Part shown: piece by piece, positions 4,504-62,781 of the stretch
Position numbering within the stretch: the stretch's first letter is position 1
How the letters are laid out: every line of letters begins with the position of its first letter
Virus record (IMG/VR): IMGVR_UViG_3300014205_000002
Coordinates: 32,001 to 96,000 of that record
DNA from: a virus
Lineage: Duplodnaviria; Caudoviricetes
Strand: one strand, 5' to 3'
Length of the DNA stretch: 64,000 nt
The notes under the pieces: generated by a model
Seen by the model: the letters and a program-made list of their open reading frames with translations, nothing else
Told to the model about the DNA's origin: nothing
The model's database searches: none
Translations under genes and position numbers: made by a program

Positions 4504-7128
4504 CTACGCCACGTTCTTGTCGCAGCCGATCAGCTCGCCGTTGACGTCGTAGCTGAAACTCTCGGTGATGGTCCTGCCGCCGATGGTCGTCACCCGCGTC
4601 GCCACCCGATTGAGTGGGCCATAGGTGTAGGTGCGCTGCCGAACTTGCGTCACCCCGTCGCTGACCGTGGCCGTTGCTATCCGGCCCTGGGGATCCTTGG
4701 CGACCACCGTGCTGCGCGTGTCGATCGCCGCAACGATCGCCTTGAGGTAGGCCACGTCGGTCCCCGCATCGCCCAGATGAACGTCGCCGGCCAGCGTGGT
4801 CTCGCCGTCGATCACGATGTCGCCGGCGACGAAGGTGTCGCCGTTCTCGTAGACGGCGAACAGATCGAAGGAATCAACGCCGTCCTTGCGGATGGCGAAC
4901 CGACCGTCGGTCCCTGTGTCGTCGGCATCGAGCATGACGATCGCGTGGCGCTGTGTGTGCAGGCGCGTGTCGCTGCCGACGAAGTGCAGGTAGTGGTTGG
5001 TGAGGTTGCGCCCCACGAAGTGGTCCTGGCCGTTGACGACGTTGCCCGCATGGGTCAGCCCGCCGTACAACGTCATCCCAAGCGTGTCGAGTACGGCGAC
5101 GGTGTCGCCCTCGCTGCGCAGATGCAAGGCCCCGCCGACGAGGCCGATGGTCCAGGTGAAGTCGGCGTTGTCGCTCTCGACGAGCTGGAGGTGGTCGGCG
5201 AGCCCGCGCAGGATCGCGGGCCCCGTGACGTCGAGGCCGTCGCCGAAGGTGCCCTTGCCGGCCATCTCCGCATCACCCTGCTCGGTCACGAAGAAGACGT
5301 CGACGTCGCCTCCGTTGCGCACGATGAAGCGCGCCGTGTCGGGGGTGATCAGCTCGTCGTCGTCGAGGTCGATCACCACCGCGCGATTCGAGGTCAGATA
5401 CAGATCGCCGCCGGAGCCGGAGGCCGAGAGCGAGCGCGCGAACATGAGCCCGTCTGGCGTGACGTAGAACAGATCGTCGCCGCCGGAGTCGCGCAGATGG
5501 ATCGGGTTGCGCGTCTGGCCTGCGGCCGCGTCGATCACGAGGCCCGCATCGGCTGCGAGGCCGAGCGATAGACCGCCCGCTCCAGGGTCGACTAGGCTGG
5601 TAAGTGAACCCCCGAGCCGGAGGCCCTTGGCGTGGATCTCCTGCGCGTTGCTCGCCCAGTCGCGCACGGTCAGCGGCGACTGGGCGAACATCGAGCCCGA
5701 GAACTTGTGCGATCCCAGAACCTCCAGCGTGCCGTCTTCCTTGAGCGTGAAGATCCGCGTGCCGACGCCGTTATTTACCGCGAACTCGGCGATGCCGTTG
5801 TTGTTCGCGTCGAGGTTGATGATCAGGCCATGGCGGCTCGTGACGGTGAAGTCATCCTCGCCAGTGTCGTCCTGGACGATGCCTGAGCGGACCGTCAGCG
5901 CGCCGTCGAGCGTCAGGCCACCGGTGGCCATGTCGAAGGTGGCGCGCACGGCGGGAACGCCCGTCGCGTCGATCAGCTGGAGCAGATTGTCTTGCAGACG
6001 TGCGCGCACCTTGCGGGTGGACGCGACAGAGTCGGTGTCCTCCCAGACCAGGCCCGGCGTCGCACCCTGGAGCGTAAGTTCACCCTGGGCCGTCAGTGCG
6101 CCGTCGCGGGAAACCACGACCATTCCGTTAAAGAGGTCGACGGAGCCTGCGGTGGCGGCGTTCTCGCGCTGGAGGTAGAGCGCGGAGCTGGCGGCCGCCC
6201 GGATGGACAGGTCGGACGCATCGGCGACAATCGCCGGATCAGCGCCCGTGAAGACGAGGTTGTCTCCCTCGACCCAGAAGTCGCCGGCGACGCCCATGCC
6301 GTGGCTCGCGCGCCAGCGATCGAGGCCCTCCATCCACATAAAGGAGGCCGTCGCCTGGTTGCCGCGGTTGATCTCGACGCCGGCGTCTTCGGTGGGTGGG
6401 TTGAGCGCTGGCAGATCGCTGTTCAGCGTGATCAGGTTGTCGCCGATCAGGAGCTGCTGCGTCTCGATCTGCGTGACCTGTCCGTTACTGATGAACAGCT
6501 GACCGTTGACGACCACGTCGCTGTTGAATGTTGAGGTGCCCTCGACATTCAACATGCCGAGGATGTGGACGTCGCTCGCGAACTCGGCCAGGCCGCCGAA
6601 CGCGACCCCCGCCTCAAAGACAGTCCTGGTCGCCACCCGGATGGTGGGATCGGCGGGCGTGTAGGAGAGCGAGTCATAGTCCCACTCGCCGACGACCAGC
6701 TCGGTCGCCGGGTGCAAGTAGCCGGCCTTGTCGCGCACGGCGAGCTCGCCCGTCACGTCCACGACCAGATACTGGTTGACGACGCCGAACTCTTCCTCCC
6801 AGCCAATCCAGCTCACGCGGCGGCCAAGCTGATAAGCCGCGCCGCCGGTCAGCGCGATCCGGCGGGTGACGACATTCACGGGGCCGTCGAAGGCCTCGAT
6901 CACGAAGCGATCGGCGTACAGCTCCCGATTGGAGGCGACCAGCGCAACGTCGATGTTGCGCCGACCGTCATCCAACCTGGAGAATAGCCCCTTGTAGAGG
7001 CTCTGGCGCTGATTAAAAGTATCGGCGTCGACGCGCTCGCCGTCGGCGTAGTCCAGCAGATCCATCGGATCGCCGTACGCGCGGTTATCAAGCTCGTCGA
7101 TGTAGGTCTGCTGGTCGGTGGTGTACAT
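4504..7128 (-). CDS. Long tail fibre protein
   Basis: 874 aa; IGDNLITLNSD...DAGVEINRG motif common in phage fibres; internal repeats; YD-like C-terminus. Confidence 0.65.
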   Translation of the reverse strand: MYTTDQQTYIDELDNRAYGDPMDLLDYADGERVDADTFNQRQSLYKGLFSRLDDGRRNIDVALVASNRELYADRFVIEAFDGPVNVVTRRIALTGGAAYQLGRRVSWIGWEEEFGVVNQYLVVDVTGELAVRDKAGYLHPATELVVGEWDYDSLSYTPADPTIRVATRTVFEAGVAFGGLAEFASDVHILGMLNVEGTSTFNSDVVVNGQLFISNGQVTQIETQQLLIGDNLITLNSDLPALNPPTEDAGVEINRGNQATASFMWMEGLDRWRASHGMGVAGDFWVEGDNLVFTGADPAIVADASDLSIRAAASSALYLQRENAATAGSVDLFNGMVVVSRDGALTAQGELTLQGATPGLVWEDTDSVASTRKVRARLQDNLLQLIDATGVPAVRATFDMATGGLTLDGALTVRSGIVQDDTGEDDFTVTSRHGLIINLDANNNGIAEFAVNNGVGTRIFTLKEDGTLEVLGSHKFSGSMFAQSPLTVRDWASNAQEIHAKGLRLGGSLTSLVDPGAGGLSLGLAADAGLVIDAAAGQTRNPIHLRDSGGDDLFYVTPDGLMFARSLSASGSGGDLYLTSNRAVVIDLDDDELITPDTARFIVRNGGDVDVFFVTEQGDAEMAGKGTFGDGLDVTGPAILRGLADHLQLVESDNADFTWTIGLVGGALHLRSEGDTVAVLDTLGMTLYGGLTHAGNVVNGQDHFVGRNLTNHYLHFVGSDTRLHTQRHAIVMLDADDTGTDGRFAIRKDGVDSFDLFAVYENGDTFVAGDIVIDGETTLAGDVHLGDAGTDVAYLKAIVAAIDTRSTVVAKDPQGRIATATVSDGVTQVRQRTYTYGPLNRVATRVTTIGGRTITESFSYDVNGELIGCDKNVA

Positions 7129-29960: not shown

Positions 29961-30919
29961 GTGAGTGGGAGGACATGGAGGAAGCCGAAGCGCTTGAGGT
30001 GATCCTCGTGCCGGCCCGCGAAGTCGTCTTCCATGAGAAGGGCCTGAGGCTCTCGGCCAGCGAGGAGCGCGAGCTAATCCGACGCGCCCAGGCCGGCGAC
30101 AAGAAGGCGATGCAGATGCTACTGGATGCACATGCGCCCTTCGTCACGATCGTGATGCGCCAGTTCACAGTACCCTCCTGGGTGCCGCAGGAAGACATCC
30201 GCCAGGAGGGCCTATACGGCCTCATGGATGGGATCAAGCGCTTCGACCTGGTCAAGCGGAAGACGCGACTGCTCTCCTATGCCGCCTGGCGCATCCACAA
30301 GGCGCTCGTGAGCTACTTCGGCGAGATGGCCTACCCGGTCAAGATGCCATTCCCCGACGTCGTAAAATTAAAGAAGGTCATGAATCGGCTTGAGATGGGG
30401 CACTCCGCCGAGCCTGAGCTGGACGAGACCTTCGTCAACCACCAGCGACACCTGAACATGCTCTCCTTGCTCGGCGGCTGCCTGCCGCTCGGCTCGGACG
30501 GCTGCGGCGAGTACGTCTTCGGCACACCCGGTGAATCCGACACCCACGCCCATCGCTCCAGCCGCGAGTTCTCGGTGCCAGACCATGCGGACGCCGTCGT
30601 CGGCACGATGGTGATGGGGGCGATCATCGACTGCCTGCGCAAGCTGCCGCTCTCCGAAGGGTTGCTGCTCGGCCAGTACTACGGCATCTACGTCGCGAGT
30701 CAGCCCGTACCGATCAAGTATATCGCCGGCGAGGCCCCCAAGGCCACGGCGGACGGACGCATCGGGGCCGGCTGGAACGGATATGGAGTCCAGATCGGGG
30801 AGTCCTATAATAGTTGCAGCAAGCTCATACGGCAGGTCGAAGCGAAGTTCCGCCTGATGCTGCTGGAACACCTGGGCCGTATCTACGCCGACTACACGGG
30901 GAGAAGCCATGACGCCTGA
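29957..30919 (+). CDS. Phage RNA polymerase sigma-70 family factor
   Basis: LSASEERELIRRAQAGD (region 1.2); EDIRQEGLYGLMDGIKRFD (2.2); SYAAWRI (2.3-2.4); diverged region 4. Confidence 0.85.
   Translation: MSEWEDMEEAEALEVILVPAREVVFHEKGLRLSASEERELIRRAQAGDKKAMQMLLDAHAPFVTIVMRQFTVPSWVPQEDIRQEGLYGLMDGIKRFDLVKRKTRLLSYAAWRIHKALVSYFGEMAYPVKMPFPDVVKLKKVMNRLEMGHSAEPELDETFVNHQRHLNMLSLLGGCLPLGSDGCGEYVFGTPGESDTHAHRSSREFSVPDHADAVVGTMVMGAIIDCLRKLPLSEGLLLGQYYGIYVASQPVPIKYIAGEAPKATADGRIGAGWNGYGVQIGESYNSCSKLIRQVEAKFRLMLLEHLGRIYADYTGRSHDA
30805..30812 (+). promoter_or_regulatory. Putative late promoter CTATAATA inside the sigma gene
   Basis: Exact motif about 95 nt upstream of 30909. Confidence 0.6.
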
Positions 30920-52354: not shown

Positions 52355-53385
52355 CACATATGATTGATTATGAGCACATGGACTTCGACTGTGACGTCCC
52401 TGACGAACTCATGTGCGACCTAAAACAGATTCTCGACGCCCGGAACCGGATCAAGGTATGCGTCGCCGGCAAACTCTACGAGTACCGTCCGGTCGTTGTT
52501 TTTAGTGAAAACTCCGGCACGGTGATTGTCGTCATCAAGTATGCCGACAACGAGGCGCATCTTTCTGATGTGGCGGAGTTCGAGTACGGCGAGTACAAAG
52601 ACCTCTCCGAGGACAAGCGGATCGATCTGGTTCGTTTTAAGTTTCTGGAGATGAAGGATACCTTTGATTGCGTCTCATTCAATATCCCCCGAGAGTTGGG
52701 ACTATTGGAGACGTTTAAGGGGTTGGCCGAGCCTGCGGCCGTCAGCACGGCGACGTGCTCACCTTGGCGCGTCGAGGGCGTCGTTCCAGACGAAGGCATG
52801 GTCAACAAGTTGCTCGTCATCATCCAGAATGAGATTCTTGAGCATTACTCTGACATGCTCGCGTTCGATGTGGACGACGCTGACGACCTCGGTGGTAGCA
52901 TCGTTGATCGGGTGTTTGCGGAGATCGCGCCCGACAAGATCGCCAAGATGCCCAGCGACGATGATGACGCTTCCGAATCCGTCGTTATTACCGACGAAGT
53001 CAAGGAGGCGTTTCGAGACGCCCTCTGGGGCTATTTTAAGATCGCCTCGCCATTGGCGATACGAACCAAGGAAGGCCGCGAGGCCGCAATCGACATGATC
53101 GAGGCTGCTGTTGAGAGCCCCAATCTAGAGGGTAGCTACCTCAAGGATAGCCTTGTTTCTATGACGAATTGGCATAACTTCATGACCGTCACGGAGCTTG
53201 AGCGCAACATTGGTTATGCGATCCTCAATCAGGCTGGCCACGTCCCTATAACCAATGGTTACGGTTACTTGATCTGCACCAATGAGCATCGTCAACTCAC
53301 CGAGATGGAGATCGACTCCATGTCAGATAAGGCCCTGGAGATGATCGTCACCTTCCTTGAGTCCGGCGAGACGGACGACGACTAG
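52351..53385 (+). CDS. Acidic hypothetical protein
   Basis: 344 aa; D/E-rich; AT-richer codon usage. Confidence 0.65.
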   Translation: MTHMIDYEHMDFDCDVPDELMCDLKQILDARNRIKVCVAGKLYEYRPVVVFSENSGTVIVVIKYADNEAHLSDVAEFEYGEYKDLSEDKRIDLVRFKFLEMKDTFDCVSFNIPRELGLLETFKGLAEPAAVSTATCSPWRVEGVVPDEGMVNKLLVIIQNEILEHYSDMLAFDVDDADDLGGSIVDRVFAEIAPDKIAKMPSDDDDASESVVITDEVKEAFRDALWGYFKIASPLAIRTKEGREAAIDMIEAAVESPNLEGSYLKDSLVSMTNWHNFMTVTELERNIGYAILNQAGHVPITNGYGYLICTNEHRQLTEMEIDSMSDKALEMIVTFLESGETDDD

Positions 53386-53387
53386 GC

Positions 53388-53413
53388 TTCCTGATAATCG
53401 CGGTTATCAGGAA
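53388..53413. repeat. Perfect palindrome TTCCTGATAA-TCGCGG-TTATCAGGAA (10-6-10)
   Basis: Read directly; related copy GGTCAGATAA-GACTCA-TTATCTGTAC at 53599-53624. Confidence 0.8.
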
Positions 53414-53689
53414 AAGCCACGGGAACGTGACGCGCGCGAATGCCCTGGGCGTTCGGACCTGGCGCGCGACGGGCCGCCGTAGGGGCGCACGCGCGTTATC
53501 TGGCGCGCGTTATCTAGGCTTGGCACAGGCACTCGTGGGCGCTGCTCCGTAAGCACGCGCCCAGAGCCAGTTTCCGGAAATAGCCCGCATCCGGAATAGG
53601 TCAGATAAGACTCATTATCTGTACTGGCGCGGGTTTCGGTGCTTTTGTCACGCGTCGCGGCCGAGTTGGTCGCGGCAGAGAGGAACCCT

Positions 53690-54376
53690 GTGGAAAAACA
53701 GCTTGCGACCACGGATCCCCACAAGGGGCCGATCATCGACATGCATGCCTCAGACAAGGAAGTCACTCGCGTCTTGAAGGAGGCCGGACACCTGGGCTAC
53801 GCCCGCGGCTATCCGACCAATAGCGACTATGAGCGGTACGTCCTGGTCAACATCCAAACAATCCAGGATGCCTACGCGTTCATGGAACAGTTGATCCGGC
53901 ACAGCTATCACCACCGACCTCGGTGGGCCGTTCACGCAAAGTGGGTGGATACCTGCACTAAAGTGAGCGTGGCACGGCGCACCTACGAGGGTGACAGCAG
54001 TACTTTCTGGTGCGAGCGGCCACGTATGCCGCTTAGCAGTGCCCGTCTGACCCATTGCGGCTGCCACGGCGTCGGTGCCTTCGATGTCCGCAAGGACACC
54101 GGCCGTCCACCATGGGCATTCAACACCCCTAAAGAGCGGGTGAGGGACGCCTATCGCGACTCCCGCTTCAACGCAAACGGTTGCCAGTGTGTCATCATAG
54201 TAGGCGATCGTGTTCTCGGCACAGGCGAGACCGCGGCCAAGGCCTGGGCTGCCGCCGACTTTGCTCTTGAGGAGCAAGTCGTCGCGCGGTGGTACCAGGG
54301 AAACGGCCGACAATTGGCTCCGGCCATGTTCAAGCTGGAGGCGAATCTCGCGCCGTGCCTGTCCAAGATGGCCTGA
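53690..54376 (+). CDS. Hypothetical protein
   Basis: GTG start after GAGAGGA; 228 aa. Confidence 0.55.
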   Translation: MEKQLATTDPHKGPIIDMHASDKEVTRVLKEAGHLGYARGYPTNSDYERYVLVNIQTIQDAYAFMEQLIRHSYHHRPRWAVHAKWVDTCTKVSVARRTYEGDSSTFWCERPRMPLSSARLTHCGCHGVGAFDVRKDTGRPPWAFNTPKERVRDAYRDSRFNANGCQCVIIVGDRVLGTGETAAKAWAAADFALEEQVVARWYQGNGRQLAPAMFKLEANLAPCLSKMA

Positions 54377-55092: not shown

Positions 55093-55181
55093 GTCGTCAC
55101 GTGACGGCGATCTGGGGGCCCAGTACCGAGAGTGCCGTCTCGTGACGGCATCTGATCGATCGACTGCCGTCCCGTGACGGC
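55093..55181. promoter_or_regulatory. Three 16-bp palindromic operator-like sites, consensus GCCGTCNCGTGACGGC
   Basis: Copies at 55093-55108, 55134-55149 and 55166-55181 in one intergenic gap. Confidence 0.7.
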
Positions 55182-55200: not shown

Positions 55201-55692
55201 ATGGACATCAAGGAGAAGGTCTTGGCCCAGGTCGCGGAGCTGGCGAAGAAAGGTTATGTCGTCACGCTCTCTGAGACATATCTTTCGCGCATCGAGAGCG
55301 CGAAGGACGACTGGGACTTCGCCGACTGCCCCGACACGACGCTGATCACCGTCGCGAAGGACGGCCAGGTCGCCGAGGCATCGAGTATTGGCGAGCGGCG
55401 CGTCACACTCAAGGAGTGGACGGGCATCGAGAGTTCGGTCGTGATCGAAGACTGGCACAACAAGCTCTTGCCCGATGCAGAGCGGGTGCTGTTCGACAAG
55501 TTCGGCGACGGCGAGGAGTTCCTCTTCGGCGGCCGCACCTACGAGTTCAACCAGGAGAACAACGGCTGGTTTGAAGACAGCTACTTCGTCGACGGCATCC
55601 AGGATGGCGACGGCTGCGACCCTTACCACGACGTGCCGATGCCGCAGGATGTGGCGGACGGCTTTGAGCGGCGCGACTGGTTCGACGCCTAA
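55201..55692 (+). CDS. Acidic hypothetical protein
   Basis: AAAGGA RBS before ATG 55201. Confidence 0.6.
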   Translation: MDIKEKVLAQVAELAKKGYVVTLSETYLSRIESAKDDWDFADCPDTTLITVAKDGQVAEASSIGERRVTLKEWTGIESSVVIEDWHNKLLPDAERVLFDKFGDGEEFLFGGRTYEFNQENNGWFEDSYFVDGIQDGDGCDPYHDVPMPQDVADGFERRDWFDA

Positions 55693-57560: not shown

Positions 57561-57763
57561 CCGTGAAGTGGATCGCCAAAAACGCGGGGCCTGTCGTCCG
57601 ATGCGGCGACACTCATGATGTGACGCTGATTCAGGCTAAATGCTTCTGCCACAACATGGCCGGCTGTGTCGAGCACGGCATGCTGTTTATACAGGAGAGT
57701 GGCGAGAAGTCCTGGTACGAGGGTGGTGTCGGTCCCTCGCTCAAGCCCGATGATTCTCAATAA
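57557..57763 (+). CDS. Small hypothetical protein
   Basis: 68 aa; ATGA overlap; stop lies inside site S1. Confidence 0.5.
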   Translation: MTVKWIAKNAGPVVRCGDTHDVTLIQAKCFCHNMAGCVEHGMLFIQESGEKSWYEGGVGPSLKPDDSQ

Positions 57764-57790
57764 GGTTTTGCTTACATTGAAAGGAGCACC

Positions 57791-57937
57791 ATGACGGTCG
57801 AGCAGCTTATCAAGCTCCTGCAAGAGGCCAAACAGACGGCCGAGGTCCGCATCGGTGGTAAGAGCCGCAAGGCGATCGGAAAGAGGATTGGAGGCGTCTG
57901 GCATGGGTCCTGCTACATCGAGATCCTGCCCGAGTAG
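57791..57937 (+). CDS. 48-aa hypothetical protein (cassette)
   Basis: MTVEQLIKLLQEAKQTAEVRI...; AAAGGAG RBS; below the ORF-track cut-off. Confidence 0.6.
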   Translation: MTVEQLIKLLQEAKQTAEVRIGGKSRKAIGKRIGGVWHGSCYIEILPE

Positions 57938-57973
57938 CGATAGGCGTTTACTTCCATTGAAAGGAGGTCCACG

Positions 57974-58339
57974 GTGACCAATTACCTAGTCCGCAATACC
58001 GAGACCGGCGCGTTCTATCCTGTGGTTAACGTCCAACTCGAAATGGACGCCTACACCGCGGTCGTCGAAGCGTTCGACATCCCGCAGTCGGTCGCAGACG
58101 CCCCTCTCGAAATTATGAACCAGGCGTGGGTTTGCCCCGGCGAGTACGCCACCAAGAGCATCCGTAGCGCCAAAGAGGAACTCTGGCAGGCGATGGGGCC
58201 TGACGCCACCGAGGCCGAGCGTGACGCCGTATGGGAGGCTGATGTCGTCCACGATCCGGACGCGGACGCCTACTACGTGGTCGACCTCGTCAAGGCGATC
58301 GAGCGAGTGACGGACAACAAATCGGAGAATCGGAAGTAG
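57974..58339 (+). CDS. Hypothetical protein (cassette)
   Basis: 121 aa; AAAGGAGG RBS. Confidence 0.65.
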   Translation: MTNYLVRNTETGAFYPVVNVQLEMDAYTAVVEAFDIPQSVADAPLEIMNQAWVCPGEYATKSIRSAKEELWQAMGPDATEAERDAVWEADVVHDPDADAYYVVDLVKAIERVTDNKSENRK

Positions 58340-58374
58340 TCAATACTCGTTTACTTACATTGAAAGGAGCCACG

Positions 58375-58581
58375 ATGGCACGCCCACCAGGACCTCGCAA
58401 GCCCCGCCGTGACTTCGACGCCGAGCCGCAATACTGCGGCAGCGGCATCACGCCTGAACAGGCGAAGGCGATTCTGTCGCTCTGCAAGGCGCTGGAATAC
58501 TGCGCGGCCCTGGGTCACGACGACGTGGCGCTCAACGCCCTGGAAGCCGACGCCGCCAAGCACGGGCCACCTACAAAGTAG
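58375..58581 (+). CDS. Hypothetical protein (cassette)
   Basis: 68 aa; AAAGGAG RBS. Confidence 0.6.
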   Translation: MARPPGPRKPRRDFDAEPQYCGSGITPEQAKAILSLCKALEYCAALGHDDVALNALEADAAKHGPPTK

Positions 58582-58600
58582 TCCTTCTTATCGAGAGCAT

Positions 58601-58810
58601 ATGAGGCCACGAATGGAACAACTACACCAGGCTAAATTCCGCGTTGTCTGCACATTGCCGTATGACAACGAAAGGCATGTAGCGTGCCTGACTCCTATTA
58701 ATGGACCCGGCGTAGATCTTCAACTCTACGTTGACACGCCAACATGCGTGCGGTTAAAGCAGGCGTACGACAGCGGTGAGATTGTAACGTTAACGCTAAG
58801 TTCCGGATAA
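58601..58810 (+). CDS. AT-richer hypothetical protein (cassette)
   Basis: 69 aa from ATG 58601 (or 58613); flanked by sites with identical TCCTTC cores. Confidence 0.55.
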   Translation: MRPRMEQLHQAKFRVVCTLPYDNERHVACLTPINGPGVDLQLYVDTPTCVRLKQAYDSGEIVTLTLSSG

Positions 58811-58838
58811 TCCTTCGAATATTGAAAATGAGGTCCTT

Positions 58839-59012
58839 ATGGACGCCTACCACATAGACGGAGAACCATTGCTGCTTGCCACGGTGCAACACGGTGATGG
58901 GCGCACAGAGGAAGTGTGTCTAATGTCCGATGGCACACAGGCCACTAACCCCGTTCGCAGGCTCGGAGGCGGCAACCGGGCACAGCGCAGGGCCGCCAAG
59001 AAGTCAAAGTAA
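58839..59012 (+). CDS. 57-aa hypothetical protein (cassette)
   Basis: MDAYHIDGEPLLL...NRAQRRAAKKSK; GAGG RBS; stop inside site S6. Confidence 0.55.
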   Translation: MDAYHIDGEPLLLATVQHGDGRTEEVCLMSDGTQATNPVRRLGGGNRAQRRAAKKSK

Positions 59013-59037
59013 TCACTATTTCATTGAAAGGAGCGTC

Positions 59038-59244
59038 ATGTACGACGTACAAGTTTGCATCAACGGCTGGGTCACGAACCTGCCGACCAACGTCCCCTGG
59101 ACCGTAGGACAGGAGATCAGCATCCGCGTCGGCGCAGACGAATGGGTCGGCGAAGTCATGGCCTGCAAGTCCACCCTGGACGACCCGAACGAAGGGCCTG
59201 TGACCTCGCCTGGCTACGACCACGCGGCGGGTTACCATGACTGA
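59038..59244 (+). CDS. Hypothetical protein (cassette)
   Basis: 68 aa; AAAGGAG RBS. Confidence 0.55.
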   Translation: MYDVQVCINGWVTNLPTNVPWTVGQEISIRVGADEWVGEVMACKSTLDDPNEGPVTSPGYDHAAGYHD

Positions 59245-59605
59245 GCAGATGGCTGACAGCCCAAGAGGGGCAGCTCACGTCGCAGCTCTCAAAGCAATCA
59301 GCCGGTTCGCCGCTGCTGGCCTGGCAGCCGTCCACGGCGAGCATGTGCCGATCGCCATCACCCAAGGCGCGCTCGACTCCATCTTGCAAGCCGCGATCGA
59401 CGTTGCCGGCGACAGCGCCGTAGACGACGCGCGGGCATCCCTGCGCGACCACTACAACGGCGAGCCAGGTCGATGGCCGGTTGGGGCACCCTTGGAGTGG
59501 CGACGGCCTGAGCCAGAGCCGAAAGAGGAGTGCCAGCACCGGGACACCTACTCGTCCTCGCCGAGCGGCTTCACTGTCTGTCGAGACTGCAATCAGGAGC
59601 TTTAG
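59237..59605 (+). CDS. Hypothetical protein with C-terminal CxH/CxxC motif
   Basis: 122 aa; overlaps upstream stop. Confidence 0.55.
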   Translation: MTEQMADSPRGAAHVAALKAISRFAAAGLAAVHGEHVPIAITQGALDSILQAAIDVAGDSAVDDARASLRDHYNGEPGRWPVGAPLEWRRPEPEPKEECQHRDTYSSSPSGFTVCRDCNQEL

Positions 59606-59645
59606 GCTCAATGTAACCAATATTACATAACGAAAGGAGGGCCCT

Positions 59646-60143
59646 GTGACCTGGTTGAAGTTCGGTACCGTGAAGGGCGGCAAGACACACCGCCACATTG
59701 GTGGCGGCAATGCGCTCTGTGACCCCACTATTCAGTTTGAGGTGACGGGCAACCTCGGCGAGGTCTCGTGCAAGCATTGCCTGCGCAAGATGGCTGACGA
59801 GTCCTTGGCGGTGCCGGCCGTCCGCACGTTCTTCACTTATCAACAGGGCCTCGACTACGCAGTCCATACGGTGACGTTCCCGGCGGAATGGGTGCGGCCT
59901 GCCCGCGGCACCTGGTTCAAGAGCCTTGAAGGGCGTATGGTCGCCTGGCACAACTTCTACGACACGCCGGAGGAGGCGCACGCGGCAGCGGACCTGGCGA
60001 AGTTGCGCAGCCACCTGGCAGCCTTTCACAGCCGTACGAGGGACGACGCCTACGGCAGGGAGATGGTCCAGGAGATGACGGAGCTGGTCGAGAAGATCAT
60101 CGCCATCGCCTACCCGAAGCCAGCCGCCGCACCCGCAATATAA
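59646..60143 (+). CDS. Hypothetical protein (cassette)
   Basis: 165 aa; H..C..CxxC N-terminus; stop inside site S8. Confidence 0.65.
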   Translation: MTWLKFGTVKGGKTHRHIGGGNALCDPTIQFEVTGNLGEVSCKHCLRKMADESLAVPAVRTFFTYQQGLDYAVHTVTFPAEWVRPARGTWFKSLEGRMVAWHNFYDTPEEAHAAADLAKLRSHLAAFHSRTRDDAYGREMVQEMTELVEKIIAIAYPKPAAAPAI

Positions 60144-60173
60144 CAACCATTTCATTGAAGAAAGGAGGGCTAC

Positions 60174-60353
60174 GTGCCCAAGTTCATCGTGGTGACCACG
60201 GTCATCGAGCGGCGAGAGATTGAGGCGGCAACGCCCGACGAGGCTTTTGAGTTAAACAACAACGCAGAAGGCAACGACTACAGTCTTTCCGTTGAGGTCC
60301 CTGACCGCTATGCCACGGACGGGAGTGGTCGGCAGTTCCGCGAAGCACTGTAA
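60174..60353 (+). CDS. 59-aa hypothetical protein (cassette)
   Basis: MPKFIVVTTVIERREIEAATPDEAFEL...; AAAGGAGG RBS. Confidence 0.6.
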   Translation: MPKFIVVTTVIERREIEAATPDEAFELNNNAEGNDYSLSVEVPDRYATDGSGRQFREAL

Positions 60354-60388
60354 TCAAAGTAACACCAACATCATTGAGAGGCCCCAAC

Positions 60389-60712
60389 ATGGACCCTAGC
60401 GCACAGATCCAGGTTGACAAACTGCGACCTAAAATGATCGAAGCATTTTGCGTCAATTTCAATAAAAGTGAAGAAGAAGTAACTACGGCTATGAAAAGCG
60501 TGGGACATAAGTTCTTCATTGTAATATCAACTCGCCAACATGAATCATACGGATTGATGGCAACATTTATGGTTCCAGCCATCCGCAATAACCAACCAGA
60601 CTTTTCGGTCGAGGAGGCGCTAGTTGACGACGACTATATAGATTACTCGATTCGAGTTATTATCCAGTCAATCGAATCCGTCAACAATACGACCATCAGG
60701 CTTTCGCTATAA
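60389..60712 (+). CDS. AT-rich hypothetical protein (cassette, likely recent acquisition)
   Basis: 107 aa; visibly lower GC than the rest of the window. Confidence 0.6.
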   Translation: MDPSAQIQVDKLRPKMIEAFCVNFNKSEEEVTTAMKSVGHKFFIVISTRQHESYGLMATFMVPAIRNNQPDFSVEEALVDDDYIDYSIRVIIQSIESVNNTTIRLSL

Positions 60713-60796
60713 CTCCAAAACCCTTAAAAATAGCACGTAATATACTGACCAGATACCTAGACAACGACGGCGGCACGACCGCCAGGAGGATACCCA

Positions 60797-61165
60797 TTGA
60801 AGCAAGAACGCAAAGAGGCGCTGAGGAAGCTCGGCAAGGCCGCAGAGCGGTTCCGGCTGCTCGCGGCGGTGCCGATGCAACGCACCATCCGCCCCGGCGG
60901 CATCATCGTCCAGGCCGCCGAGGACGTGAACCTGTTTCTGCTGGCCGAGGGCATCGGCCTGGCGGGCGGCGACGGCCTGTTGCTGCTCACCGAGTTGGCG
61001 GCCACGCGGAAGGCGCTGGCGGATCTACTGGAGCACCACGAGGACGAGCCCGATCGGCCAGCCGTCAAGAACGCCAGCGCGATGCTGGAAGGAATCCACG
61101 AACACGTGGCGCTGATGCGGGACTTCGGCCCTGCCTCCGCTAAACAGAGCGAAGGCGGGCTGTGA
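60797..61165 (+). CDS. Hypothetical protein
   Basis: TTG start; AGGAGG RBS; 122 aa. Confidence 0.6.
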   Translation: MKQERKEALRKLGKAAERFRLLAAVPMQRTIRPGGIIVQAAEDVNLFLLAEGIGLAGGDGLLLLTELAATRKALADLLEHHEDEPDRPAVKNASAMLEGIHEHVALMRDFGPASAKQSEGGL

Positions 61166-61404
61166 TGCGGCGAGAGATTCCCATTACCCAGGGACCCAAC
61201 CGCACCGTGGCGATGACCCAACACGGCGACACGTTGAGTCTCTATGAGCGTGCGGACGGCCGGGAAAACCGGGTGTTTATTGCGCCCGAGGAGTTGGCAC
61301 TGGTTGCGCTCTCCGCGTCGGGACGCTTCCAGGAACGCTACTCCGCGGAGATTGAGCGGTTGCAGGGCCAGGCCGACTCACCGGGCGAAGGCGGCGGCGC
61401 ATGA
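61162..61404 (+). CDS. Hypothetical protein
   Basis: 80 aa; GTGA overlap. Confidence 0.5.
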   Translation: MMRREIPITQGPNRTVAMTQHGDTLSLYERADGRENRVFIAPEELALVALSASGRFQERYSAEIERLQGQADSPGEGGGA

Positions 61405-61607
61405 CGAGCGTTTATCCCATCGGGCCGCTCGGCGAACCCGAAGATAGTCGGGCGTGGTCGAACGGCATTCCGCCGTGCGGTCCCTGTGGACGCGGGGAGC
61501 ACGATGAGTGCAAGGGTGGATTCGAGGACCTGGCCGGATACCGTCAGTGCTGGTGCCCTGTTTGCTACCCCGCCTCTTCGCGCAAAGACGGCGATCAGCA
61601 CGGATAG
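61401..61607 (+). CDS. Small Cys-rich protein
   Basis: CGPC..GEHDEC...CWCPVC. Confidence 0.55.
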   Translation: MTSVYPIGPLGEPEDSRAWSNGIPPCGPCGRGEHDECKGGFEDLAGYRQCWCPVCYPASSRKDGDQHG

Positions 61608-61645
61608 TCAATGTAACAGCCGATTCATTGCAAAAAGGAGTCCTG

Positions 61646-61993
61646 ATGACTTGCTGCCATTGTTCAAGCGCCAACTTGGAATACGCCACGAAGCGCGCCC
61701 GCGAGGCTGAAGTTGAACTGGCTCGACTCCAGGCAGACGTCGCACGCATCCGCGGCGAGAACCAGAACCTCCACTACGCCATGCTCGTCGTCCGAGATCT
61801 GGTTGGCTTACAGACGCGGGATGCCTACCTTGACCCGGCCTTTGGGCAGATGGTGAAGCTCCCGGCTGACTGGCGAAAGTGGACGACCGAGCAGTATCAG
61901 GAATGGATCGATGGGCAGCAGCCAGAACTGCGCCGGGCCGTCGAGTTCCTGGACAAGATGGAGGGCGTCGTTGGCGTCGTCCCAGCAATATAA
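61646..61993 (+). CDS. Hypothetical protein (cassette)
   Basis: 115 aa; AAAGGAG RBS; stop inside site S12. Confidence 0.6.
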   Translation: MTCCHCSSANLEYATKRAREAEVELARLQADVARIRGENQNLHYAMLVVRDLVGLQTRDAYLDPAFGQMVKLPADWRKWTTEQYQEWIDGQQPELRRAVEFLDKMEGVVGVVPAI

Positions 61994-62020
61994 CCCCTGA
62001 CTCATTGAAAGGATGGCATT

Positions 62021-62497
62021 TTGCCCAACAAGACGGAACCTGAAATTGGCATGTTGGTCACCAAATGGAAGCACCAATACACGGTCGCCAGCGTGAAGGT
62101 TGGCCTGATCGCCGGGCCTCACGTCCGACTCTCTGGCGATGGCCCAGATGCGGACGGAAGCCTGGTCGCATGGTCGCTCTGCACGCCTGTCGTTACCGAC
62201 CTAAAAGAGGGAAACATGCAGATACTCAAAACCGGCGACAAGGTTCGTCCTCTTAGAGAGTTCGACCTCAGCACCTCGGCCACTCGCAAGATCGTTCCGG
62301 CCGGCACGCCCGGCGTGGTCATCGAGGATCTGAACGAGGTCGTGGCGAAGGAGAACCAGCGACCCGAGATCTACGGGCCGCCCAGCCACCGTCACAAGGA
62401 CCTCGCCCTGGTCCGCTTTGAGGGCCACGACGCCCAGGGGTGGCTGCGGTACGCCGACATCGAGTTGATCGAGGCTGCGGAAGAGGGGTCGACATGA
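62021..62497 (+). CDS. Hypothetical protein (possible internal start near 62216)
   Basis: TTG start after AAAGGA; second RBS before MQILKTGDKVR. Confidence 0.55.
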   Translation: MPNKTEPEIGMLVTKWKHQYTVASVKVGLIAGPHVRLSGDGPDADGSLVAWSLCTPVVTDLKEGNMQILKTGDKVRPLREFDLSTSATRKIVPAGTPGVVIEDLNEVVAKENQRPEIYGPPSHRHKDLALVRFEGHDAQGWLRYADIELIEAAEEGST

Positions 62498-62781
62498 CCA
62501 AAAACACCGTCAGGCACAACTCAGTCGAGGTTGTCGTCACCCACCCTGGCAAGAAGCCCATCAGCGACGAGCAGGCGCTGGAGTTGGTCAAGTTCGCCGA
62601 AGTGGAGGGTCGTCGCTGGAAGTCGGCGCTGAGTGGCTTGTGGATGCGCGCGGCGGCGAACCCGCTGCTTCATCAGCTGAGAAACTCACATGGTCCGACT
62701 TGGTTGCAAGGCGTCCGAATCAATGCGTCCGGCGAGGGGTCTTTTGGTGTTCCTGCCGATCGCGGACTGCCTCCCGATTGA
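62494..62781 (+). CDS. Hypothetical protein
   Basis: 95 aa; GRRWKSAL...LHQLRNSHGPTWL; ATGA overlap. Confidence 0.55.
   Translation: MTKNTVRHNSVEVVVTHPGKKPISDEQALELVKFAEVEGRRWKSALSGLWMRAAANPLLHQLRNSHGPTWLQGVRINASGEGSFGVPADRGLPPD

Follow-up and report, generated by a model that had tools for sequence, protein, structure and literature searches.

The window analysed here comprises 64,000 nucleotides (nt), namely bases 32001-96000 of a single 208,264-bp contig (IMG/VR record IMGVR_UViG_3300014205_000002), which carries direct terminal repeats and is rated complete. The phage is an uncultured myovirus encoding a terminase, a tail sheath, and a baseplate wedge, and the G+C content of its genome is ~63%. 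Near the start of a rightward gene run of ~60 kb, downstream of the structural module, lies a 4.3-kb block of small orphan genes, within which a 24-nt directional pseudo-palindrome with the consensus TCAATRTAA-N6-TTNCATTGA recurs. Between positions 57757 and 62008 of the window, to which all coordinates without a further label refer, this element is found 10 to 15 nt 5' of the start codon at 9 of the 11 non-overlapping gene junctions. The original prediction, which read the block as an array of gene cassettes delimited by dif-like sites, had listed twelve 24-mers, here named S1 to S12, and every one of them is present at its listed position (Table 1). It had also described the genes between the sites as small and unrelated, in agreement with which neither paralogs nor Pfam families were detected among them. 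Two of the array proteins were also submitted to the ESM Atlas, which returned nothing usable.

A 24-nt element at the starts of small orphan genes

According to a consensus scan of the whole 208-kb genome, in which the 9-6-9 layout was required and up to five mismatches were allowed, eight copies with a 6-bp spacer are present, all of them in 57757-61985. The same scan returned three weak matches elsewhere in the genome, one of which has a 6-bp spacer, and the corresponding number in block shuffles is one to four. An unsupervised repeat search recovered two subfamilies, one consisting of six copies (S6, S7, S8, S9, S11, and S12) and one consisting of four (S1, S2, and S3 together with S6). 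When each copy was scored by a leave-one-out position weight matrix (PWM), S6, S7, S8, S9, S11, and S12 reached 18 to 32 bits, S1 and S3 11.8 bits, S10 10.6 bits, S2 10.3 bits, S5 6.4 bits, and S4 5.7 bits, to be compared with shuffled genomes that peak at 13 to 15 bits. A PWM scan of the genome and of relatives had been proposed together with the cassette reading, and it speaks for the distinctness of the array: scores of at least 16 bits occur nowhere outside it, either in the phage genome or in the relative G001 described below. On the basis of the PWM scores compared with those of the shuffles, nine sites are counted as real, namely the six strong ones and the S1-to-S3 subfamily, while S10 is probably a degenerate relic and S4 and S5 are classed as weak. 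In the S1-to-S3 subfamily, the right arm, with its Shine-Dalgarno sequence, is perfect and the left arm poor; over 31 nt, S1 and S3 share 84% identity. Taken singly, S4 and S5 fall short of significance, and they have a hybrid look.

The register of the element with respect to the genes is narrow on both sides. Upstream, the stop codon of the preceding gene occupies left-arm positions 7 to 9 in six copies and positions 5 to 7 in S1, and in the five remaining copies it ends 0 to 2 nt before the arm (in S2, the last base of the stop is the first base of the arm). Downstream, the distance from the end of the copy to the next start codon is 10 to 15 nt in all copies. Every copy obtains a higher PWM score on the strand of the genes. 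The junctions of the array that have no site are overlapping ones of the ATGA type, and outside the array the gene junctions consist of overlaps or of short GC-rich Shine-Dalgarno spacers; an ordinary Shine-Dalgarno sequence also precedes the coupled genes that follow S10.

In the strong sites (59004-62008), three variants of the left arm, TCAAAGTAA (A), TCAATGTAA (B), and GCAATATAA (C), follow one another in the order A, B, C, A, (relic), B, C, and the genes upstream of S8 and S12 end in the same three codons, Pro-Ala-Ile-stop. The order of the arms and the common codons may go back to an old duplication of three units or to repeated exchange.

Table 1. Sites of the array, the genes that follow them, and further features of the region (window coordinates)
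Feature	Coordinates	Strand	Description
S1	57757..57780	+	Left arm only TCAAT, right arm perfect; followed by 48-aa gene 57791-57937
S2	57937..57960	+	Spacer GTTTAC, same as S3; followed by 121-aa gene 57974-58339
S3	58340..58363	+	S1-to-S3 subfamily; followed by 68-aa gene 58375-58581
S4	58573..58596	+	Weak/hybrid: array-like left arm, spacer TCCTTC, GATAA-type right arm TTATCGAGA
65-aa gene	58613..58810	+	GC 0.49, GC at third codon positions (GC3) 0.52; candidate inserted unit
S5	58802..58825	+	Weak/hybrid: GATAA-type left arm TCCGGATAA, spacer TCCTTC, array-like right arm; followed by 57-aa gene 58839-59012
S6	59004..59027	+	Strong, 32 bits; followed by coupled genes 59038-59244 and 59237-59605
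S7	59608..59631	+	Strong; followed by 165-aa gene 59646-60143
S8	60135..60158	+	Strong; followed by 59-aa gene 60174-60353
S9	60354..60377	+	Strong; followed by AT-rich foreign 107-aa gene 60389-60712, GC 0.42
S10	60704..60727	+	Probable relic; then 70 nt of AT-rich non-coding sequence, then coupled genes 60797-61607
S11	61608..61631	+	Strong; followed by 115-aa gene 61646-61993
S12	61985..62008	+	Strong, last of the array; followed by coupled genes 62021-62497 and 62494-62781
XRE-family helix-turn-helix regulator, 112 aa	54492..54830	+	3 kb upstream of the array; candidate binder of one palindrome family
Two GATAA-N6-TTATC palindromes	53389..53412, 53600..53623	+	9-6-9 layout, head of the rightward block

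Candidate operator function and other regulatory signals

The best conserved positions of the element are the outer CAAT (2 to 5) and CATTGA (19 to 24); information is low in the spacer and at the inner positions of the arms. The right arm partly merges with TGAAAGGAG, a ribosome-binding context which is widespread in the phage group even without the palindrome, so that the part specific to the element is TCAATRTAA-N6-TTNCAT; the left arm mirrors the bases beside the Shine-Dalgarno sequence. The arms pair at only 4 to 7 of their 9 positions, and the departures move toward the sequence consensus, none of them being compensatory. As RNA, the sites fold with 0 to -3.2 kcal/mol (z about 0), and as single-stranded DNA with 0 to -2.4 kcal/mol, where only S7 (z -3.3) beats its shuffles; a search for the element in Rfam gave no match. 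Since a fold, compensatory changes, and an Rfam match are all missing, a hairpin, a terminator, a nuclease site, and attC-like folding were rejected, and we read the element as duplex DNA. The same results bear on the proposal that the element acts in the mRNA, as a hairpin or a single-stranded AU-rich leader that would adjust translation or mRNA processing, be it as an enhancer of the S1 type, as a nuclease site, or as a translational operator. Such a role would suit an element that always adjoins the Shine-Dalgarno sequence and is AT-rich within a genome of 63% G+C, and relatives of the phage have small GC-rich hairpins directly 5' of some Shine-Dalgarno sequences. However, the predicted folds are no better than those of shuffles, covariation is absent, and AT-richness alone leaves the conserved dyad unexplained, and we deem this explanation very improbable.

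Conserved outer ends around a poorly conserved centre are the pattern of dimer operators, and on balance we lean toward the view that the element is a start-linked, double-stranded-DNA operator-type signal for a phage-encoded dimeric regulator, heading each small expression unit. In favor of it, the motif is confined to one block, is linked to gene starts, and begins at the upstream stop codon. Operators analogous to stoperators or start-associated sequences had been mentioned in the original prediction as the alternative to dif/Xer cassettes, and this alternative fits the data better. We infer that a phage-encoded dimeric DNA-binding protein would bind the outer half-sites TCAAT ... ATTGA, which are 14 bp apart, that one copy would head each separately translated unit, directly 5' of the usual ribosome-binding site TGAAAGGAG, and that binding would switch the whole block, whose orphan genes are probably early and involved in host takeover, on or off together. 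As a by-product, repeats of 24 to 35 bp might provide short homologies for the gain, loss, and swap of genes, as in the promoter-early stem-loop (PeSL) cassettes discussed below. If the element is an operator or control cassette of this kind, it defines a co-regulated set of ~16 orphan genes, probably serving early host takeover or anti-defence, and the motif with its candidate regulator offers a handle on regulation in a very sparsely sampled lineage of jumbo phages.

The phage has at least three other families of operator-like dyads in regulatory positions, so that a further dyad family is most simply explained as another operator. The dispersed palindrome TTGGTCNGACCAA has 34 copies with at most one mismatch in the whole genome versus 3 to 9 in shuffles (e.g., at window 37498 and 31564), and several of them stand beside late promoters (e.g., genome 4000 and 150638, next to TATAAT). 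The 16-bp palindrome GCCGTCACGTGACGGC occurs in clusters which look like a classical multi-operator arrangement: three copies lie at 55096-55169, 5' of gene 55222-55692, four at genome 194379-194457, and further ones at genome 121482 and 122308. A third type, GATAA-N6-TTATC, is represented by a pair of palindromes in a 304-nt gap (53385-53690), together with tandem half-sites (TTATCT; two tandem GCGCGCGTTATCT). The first palindrome of the pair has perfect 10-bp arms and folds with -8.3 kcal/mol as single-stranded DNA, and the stretch from 53389 to 53623 might serve as an operator region, as an origin, or as a site for a recombinase.

Palindromes of the type found at 53389 and 53600 are common to sites in G001 and to the inner arms around the 65-aa gene of the array. 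G001, the one relative returned by a terminase search, is 106 kb long and about half complete; it shares the structural module at 23-59% protein identity (most 30-58%), and outside this module the only common gene is that of a 156-aa protein (window 55222-55692). Shortly after the homolog of this gene, G001 has two 9-6-9 GATAA-N6-TTATC palindromes (L012:3993-4016 and 6157-6180), each of which is immediately 5' of AAAGGAG and a start codon and heads a run of overlapping small genes. The same layout and position, combined with different arms, fits a site that co-evolves with its own binding protein. Between these two sites (L012:4031-6142), G001 encodes several proteins with a similar (L/I)DLxPIKxRLA N terminus and a pentapeptide-repeat protein.

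The phage encodes a 1955-aa fused beta-beta' RNA polymerase (L039:9898-15765) containing Rpb2 domains 3 and 6 and Rpb1 domains 1 and 2 and interrupted by a LAGLIDADG intein, as well as two sigma-70-family proteins (L039:4937-5647 and window 29975-30919). Owning both looks unusual, because a review of 224 jumbo phages found sigma factors in polymerase-less phages and none in the polymerase-encoding phiKZ-like group (PMC7824862). The only recognisable promoter class is late-type and consists of CCCTATAATA followed by CCTCGGA-like bases, with no -35; it lies 24 to 50 nt 5' of mainly structural genes (e.g., window 15352, 16631, 19547, and 7568 on the minus strand) and is nearly absent from the long rightward block. 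In G001, GCTGATAAT apparently takes the place of CCCTATAATA.

With these proteins in the genome, the element might instead be a phage-specific promoter for the fused polymerase and one of the two sigma-like factors, so that every unit would have a separate promoter, like the units of early-gene blocks in other large phages; if the polymerase is virion-delivered, the element would possibly be the early class. We consider this unlikely. In its favor, a directional site stands at the head of every unit, the left arm is 30 to 35 nt away from the start codon, within the range of the TATAAT promoters (24 to 50 nt), and weak TATAAT-like hexamers such as TATAAC and TGTAAC are found in left arms. However, a consistent -10 is missing, since neither the A at position 2 nor the T at position 6 is maintained and S1 to S3 have no in-register hexamer; there is no conservation where a -35 would be; and a scan of the region with the sigma-70 consensus gave chance level. 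With the right arm as the -10, transcription would begin within the Shine-Dalgarno sequence or beyond it. The dyad symmetry would be left unexplained.

Several observations weigh against the operator-type signal that we favor. The candidate for the binder, the XRE-family gene, is only a neighbour of the array, and a promoter for the block was not found. The half-site centres are 15 to 19 bp apart, which is wider than in most helix-turn-helix operators and nearer to recombinase geometry. Part of the right-arm conservation is accounted for by the lineage-wide TGAAAGGAG context. Finally, in four more distant relatives, whose baseplate proteins are 43-50% identical, no such array is present in the 10 kb after the baseplate gene.

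The lineage as a whole is very thinly sampled. None of 50,697 phage records matched as a relative in megablast and tblastn searches, viral contigs queried with the 165-aa array protein and a 723-aa neighbour gave no matches, and no prophage relative was detected in the genome contigs scanned. A scan of metagenomes with the conserved 156-aa neighbour gave no match, and one with the terminase led to two loci, neither of which could be extended. In a collection of 5.8 billion proteins, the 156-aa neighbour was unmatched and a single homolog (52% identity) was found for one array gene, 59646-60143; it sits on 2-kb contigs bearing at most one degenerate site. Compared with this homolog (L003:889-1242), the array protein has an extra N-terminal portion of ~60 aa with a Cys-x-x-Cys motif, which the homolog lacks. 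The same collection yielded the distant relatives mentioned above by way of their baseplate proteins, and a further relative of the baseplate protein, at 79% identity, is known only from a 1.9-kb contig. The nearest relatives show protein identities of 43-61%, and none of them has array genes in common with the phage. When viral contigs were searched for the exact pattern TCAAT-N13-CATTGAAAGGAG, 17 single matches were obtained, about the number expected by chance, and the sole match in high-GC DNA lies inside a tail-fibre repeat.

Possible recombination at the sites

The cassette mechanism of the original prediction holds that the sites are tyrosine-recombinase core sites, used by a phage Xer-like protein or by host Xer, and that single-gene cassettes are inserted, excised, and shuffled across the 6-bp spacer. 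In our assessment it finds backing in a Xer-like recombinase, in a foreign gene between identical spacers, and in the likeness of neighbouring spacers, while the conservation pattern, the mostly unique spacers, and the co-orientation of the copies speak against it, and we regard it as quite unlikely. The 9-6-9 layout with its fixed 6-bp spacer is compatible with such sites, and the half-site spacing suits recombinase clamps. The recombinase supposed to be encoded by the host or by the phage outside the window does have a phage candidate, located on the minus strand at genome 171.4 kb (L002:1459-2412), in which the Pfam domains SAM_1 and Phage_integrase are recognised and for which XerD and XerC are the best models. 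However, it reaches only 60 bits to XerD, whose cut-off is 329 (the XerC/D cut-offs are near 330), and both catalytic histidines are replaced, by Gln and Phe (QVMR for HxxR and LGF for LGH), the Arg, Arg, and Tyr residues being present. Its gene is 78 kb away from the array, and no repeat or site was found beside it. As for the reported match of one arm to the XerD arm of Escherichia coli dif, the count of 7 of 11 positions is right, but it is unremarkable for an AT-rich sequence picked post hoc.

The evidence for exchange at the sites is centred on the 65-aa gene, whose composition is foreign compared with that of its neighbours (GC 0.56-0.68 and GC3 0.66-0.85, gene 60389-60712 excepted). It lies between identical TCCTTC spacers, its inner arms form an inverted repeat at 7 of 9 positions of the GATAA-N6-TTATC type, a type that recurs elsewhere in the phage and in G001, and the outer arms around it resemble the array consensus. 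This is an attL/attR pattern and the only such configuration in the genome. Since identical spacers with differing arms are the reverse of what duplication followed by drift would leave, they fit a spacer-centred exchange or an insertion that duplicates 6 bp; 58573-58825 could equally represent a tiny transposon-like element, bounded by terminal inverted repeats, that entered an already existing site at its centre and duplicated 6 bp of the target. When the 65-aa gene was used as the query of an exhaustive search, only artefactual multi-repeat matches to unrelated repeat proteins and no true homologs were returned. Over the array, the spacers are identical in the adjacent pairs S2/S3 and S4/S5 and match at 5 of 6 positions in S9/S10, and the likeness between neighbouring spacers exceeds that obtained in shuffled order (p<1e-5 for the 12 sites and 0.0014 for the 9 sites). 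S10 was rejected as half of a matched-spacer pair, as it is a relic and the right end of the foreign gene 60389-60712 is not at a site.

Several features are at odds with recombinase core sites. The positions flanking the spacer, where cleavage would take place, are the least conserved ones, and S1 to S3 lack the TAA, whereas pdif sites conserve exactly these positions. Ten of the 12 spacers are unique, so that most site pairs could not recombine. All copies are co-oriented with the genes, whereas pdif sites alternate, and the cassette model does not call for the strict tie to the ribosome-binding site, which recombination alone leaves unexplained. At the end of the second foreign gene, 60389-60712, there is no credible site. 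In the single public DNA run that contains the sequence, a landfill metagenome and its probable source, neither variant contigs nor joints were found, which, coming from contigs only, is at most weak evidence; no RNA run with the sequence is listed. A fuller version of the model would make this a jumbo phage, virulent or plasmid-like, with its own attC-free cassette system: near-symmetric 9-6-9 sites, serving at the same time as expression signals, would be the substrates of one divergent Xer-like recombinase, which would thereby capture and shuffle single accessory genes; 58613-58810 would be an insertion caught in place and GATAA-N6-TTATC a second class of site, common to this phage and a related one. 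We hold this version to be decidedly unlikely. If the cassette reading is true, this would be the first case of a phage genome with a cassette array driven by a recombinase.

By analogy with the PeSL cassettes, the repeats that we read as operator-type signals would probably also act as a hot spot for gene gain and loss, and recombination at them would explain the presence of foreign genes and hybrid sites inside the array. In line with this, the weakest sites of the array are those next to the two foreign genes, 58613-58810 and 60389-60712, and neighbouring spacers are alike, as noted above. Precedents are the mini-circles of PeSL cassettes and the repeat at Corndog gene 14, both described below. 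The phage also encodes a single-strand annealing protein of the Rad52/Rad22 family (L006:7355-8149, genome 109.4 kb), which likely drives short-homology recombination in this phage.

Comparison with known repeat systems

Since the defining features of start-associated sequences (SAS/ESAS), PeSL cassettes, dif/pdif sites, and attC sites are not found in it, the element is an analogue rather than a member of these systems, and it is a modest variation on known phage practice. By our comparison, the SAS/ESAS of Cluster K mycobacteriophages appear closest in architecture and the PeSLs closest in genome dynamics. The former consist of a conserved 13-bp GGGATAGGAGCCC and of 17-bp inverted-repeat arms separated by a variable spacer of 4 to 13 bp, and their function is still unknown (PMC3203893, PMC12699233). 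Like them, the element is an inverted repeat directly 5' of a ribosome-binding element and stands, in co-oriented copies, at a subset of gene starts. Unlike them, it has 9-bp arms, a fixed 6-bp spacer, and a different sequence, and it forms one tight cluster in a 208-kb myovirus, whereas SAS/ESAS are distributed through the non-structural half of the genome of a temperate siphovirus of 60 kb. To the few start-linked repeats of unsolved function, the element thus adds a distinct case with a fixed 9-6-9 dyad, no promoter consensus, and no hairpin.

The PeSL cassettes of T4-type phages are made up of a sigma-70 promoter and a stable GC-rich stem-loop terminator, and these regulatory repeats were shown experimentally to recombine into mini-circles, leaving chimeric units behind (PMC2839356, PMC4122927). 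As in the PeSL system, where the units carry expression signals and recombination between neighbouring units leads to the insertion, deletion, and circularisation of single genes, a repeated intergenic unit precedes many small orphan genes of a hyperplastic region. Instead of a sigma-70 promoter and a stable stem-loop, however, the element is a 24-bp AT-rich dyad abutting the Shine-Dalgarno sequence. Promoter- and terminator-like sites are at chance number in the region, and none coincides with an element except one promoter-like match whose second hexamer, GATAAT, is in the weak S5. For the element, recombination is suggested by gene composition and hybrid sites, in contrast to the PeSLs. Read in this manner, the array is one more piece of evidence for gene gain and loss in phages at repeated regulatory units.

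Stoperators and the Cluster O repeat resemble the element in being many short motifs of the protein-binding type at junctions in long co-oriented operons. Stoperators are asymmetric, and the Cluster O repeat is a dyad. The Cluster A stoperators and the 17-bp dyad repeat of Cluster O have 20 to 35 genome-wide copies with no fixed register to start codons, and a pair of Cluster O repeats flanks an inserted gene, Corndog 14 (PMC4351075). The element differs from both in having 9 to 12 copies, all of them within 4.3 kb and all linked to gene starts.

The pdif sites have an 11-6-11 layout with distinct and strongly conserved XerC and XerD arms, in which the inner TATAA/TTATG is invariant; they alternate in orientation and recombine when their spacers are identical or near-identical (PMC13141974). 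The element resembles dif/pdif sites in its pair of arms on either side of a 6-bp spacer, in the TAA/TTA that some copies tend to have next to the spacer, in the small gene modules between sites, and in the matching spacers at the one candidate insertion, while the 9-bp near-symmetric arms, the variable inner positions, the co-oriented copies, and the mostly unique spacers set it apart. With integron arrays, the block shares single, unrelated, co-oriented small genes separated by imperfect palindromes. The attC sites of integrons are recognised as folded single strands, each 3' of a cassette that has no promoter, and depend on an IntI integrase and a Pc promoter. The element, unlike attC, does not fold, and the phage recombinase scores 15.5 bits with the integron-integrase model versus a cut-off of 265.

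A different start-linked repeat occurs in G001 and in distant relatives of the phage, where small GC-rich hairpins with a 5-bp stem (e.g., GCCGT-TCCG-ACGGC and CCGG-TCTG-CCGG) precede some of the Shine-Dalgarno sequences, as at 79.4-83.4 kb in G001 (L010/L011) and at L033:14830-15230.

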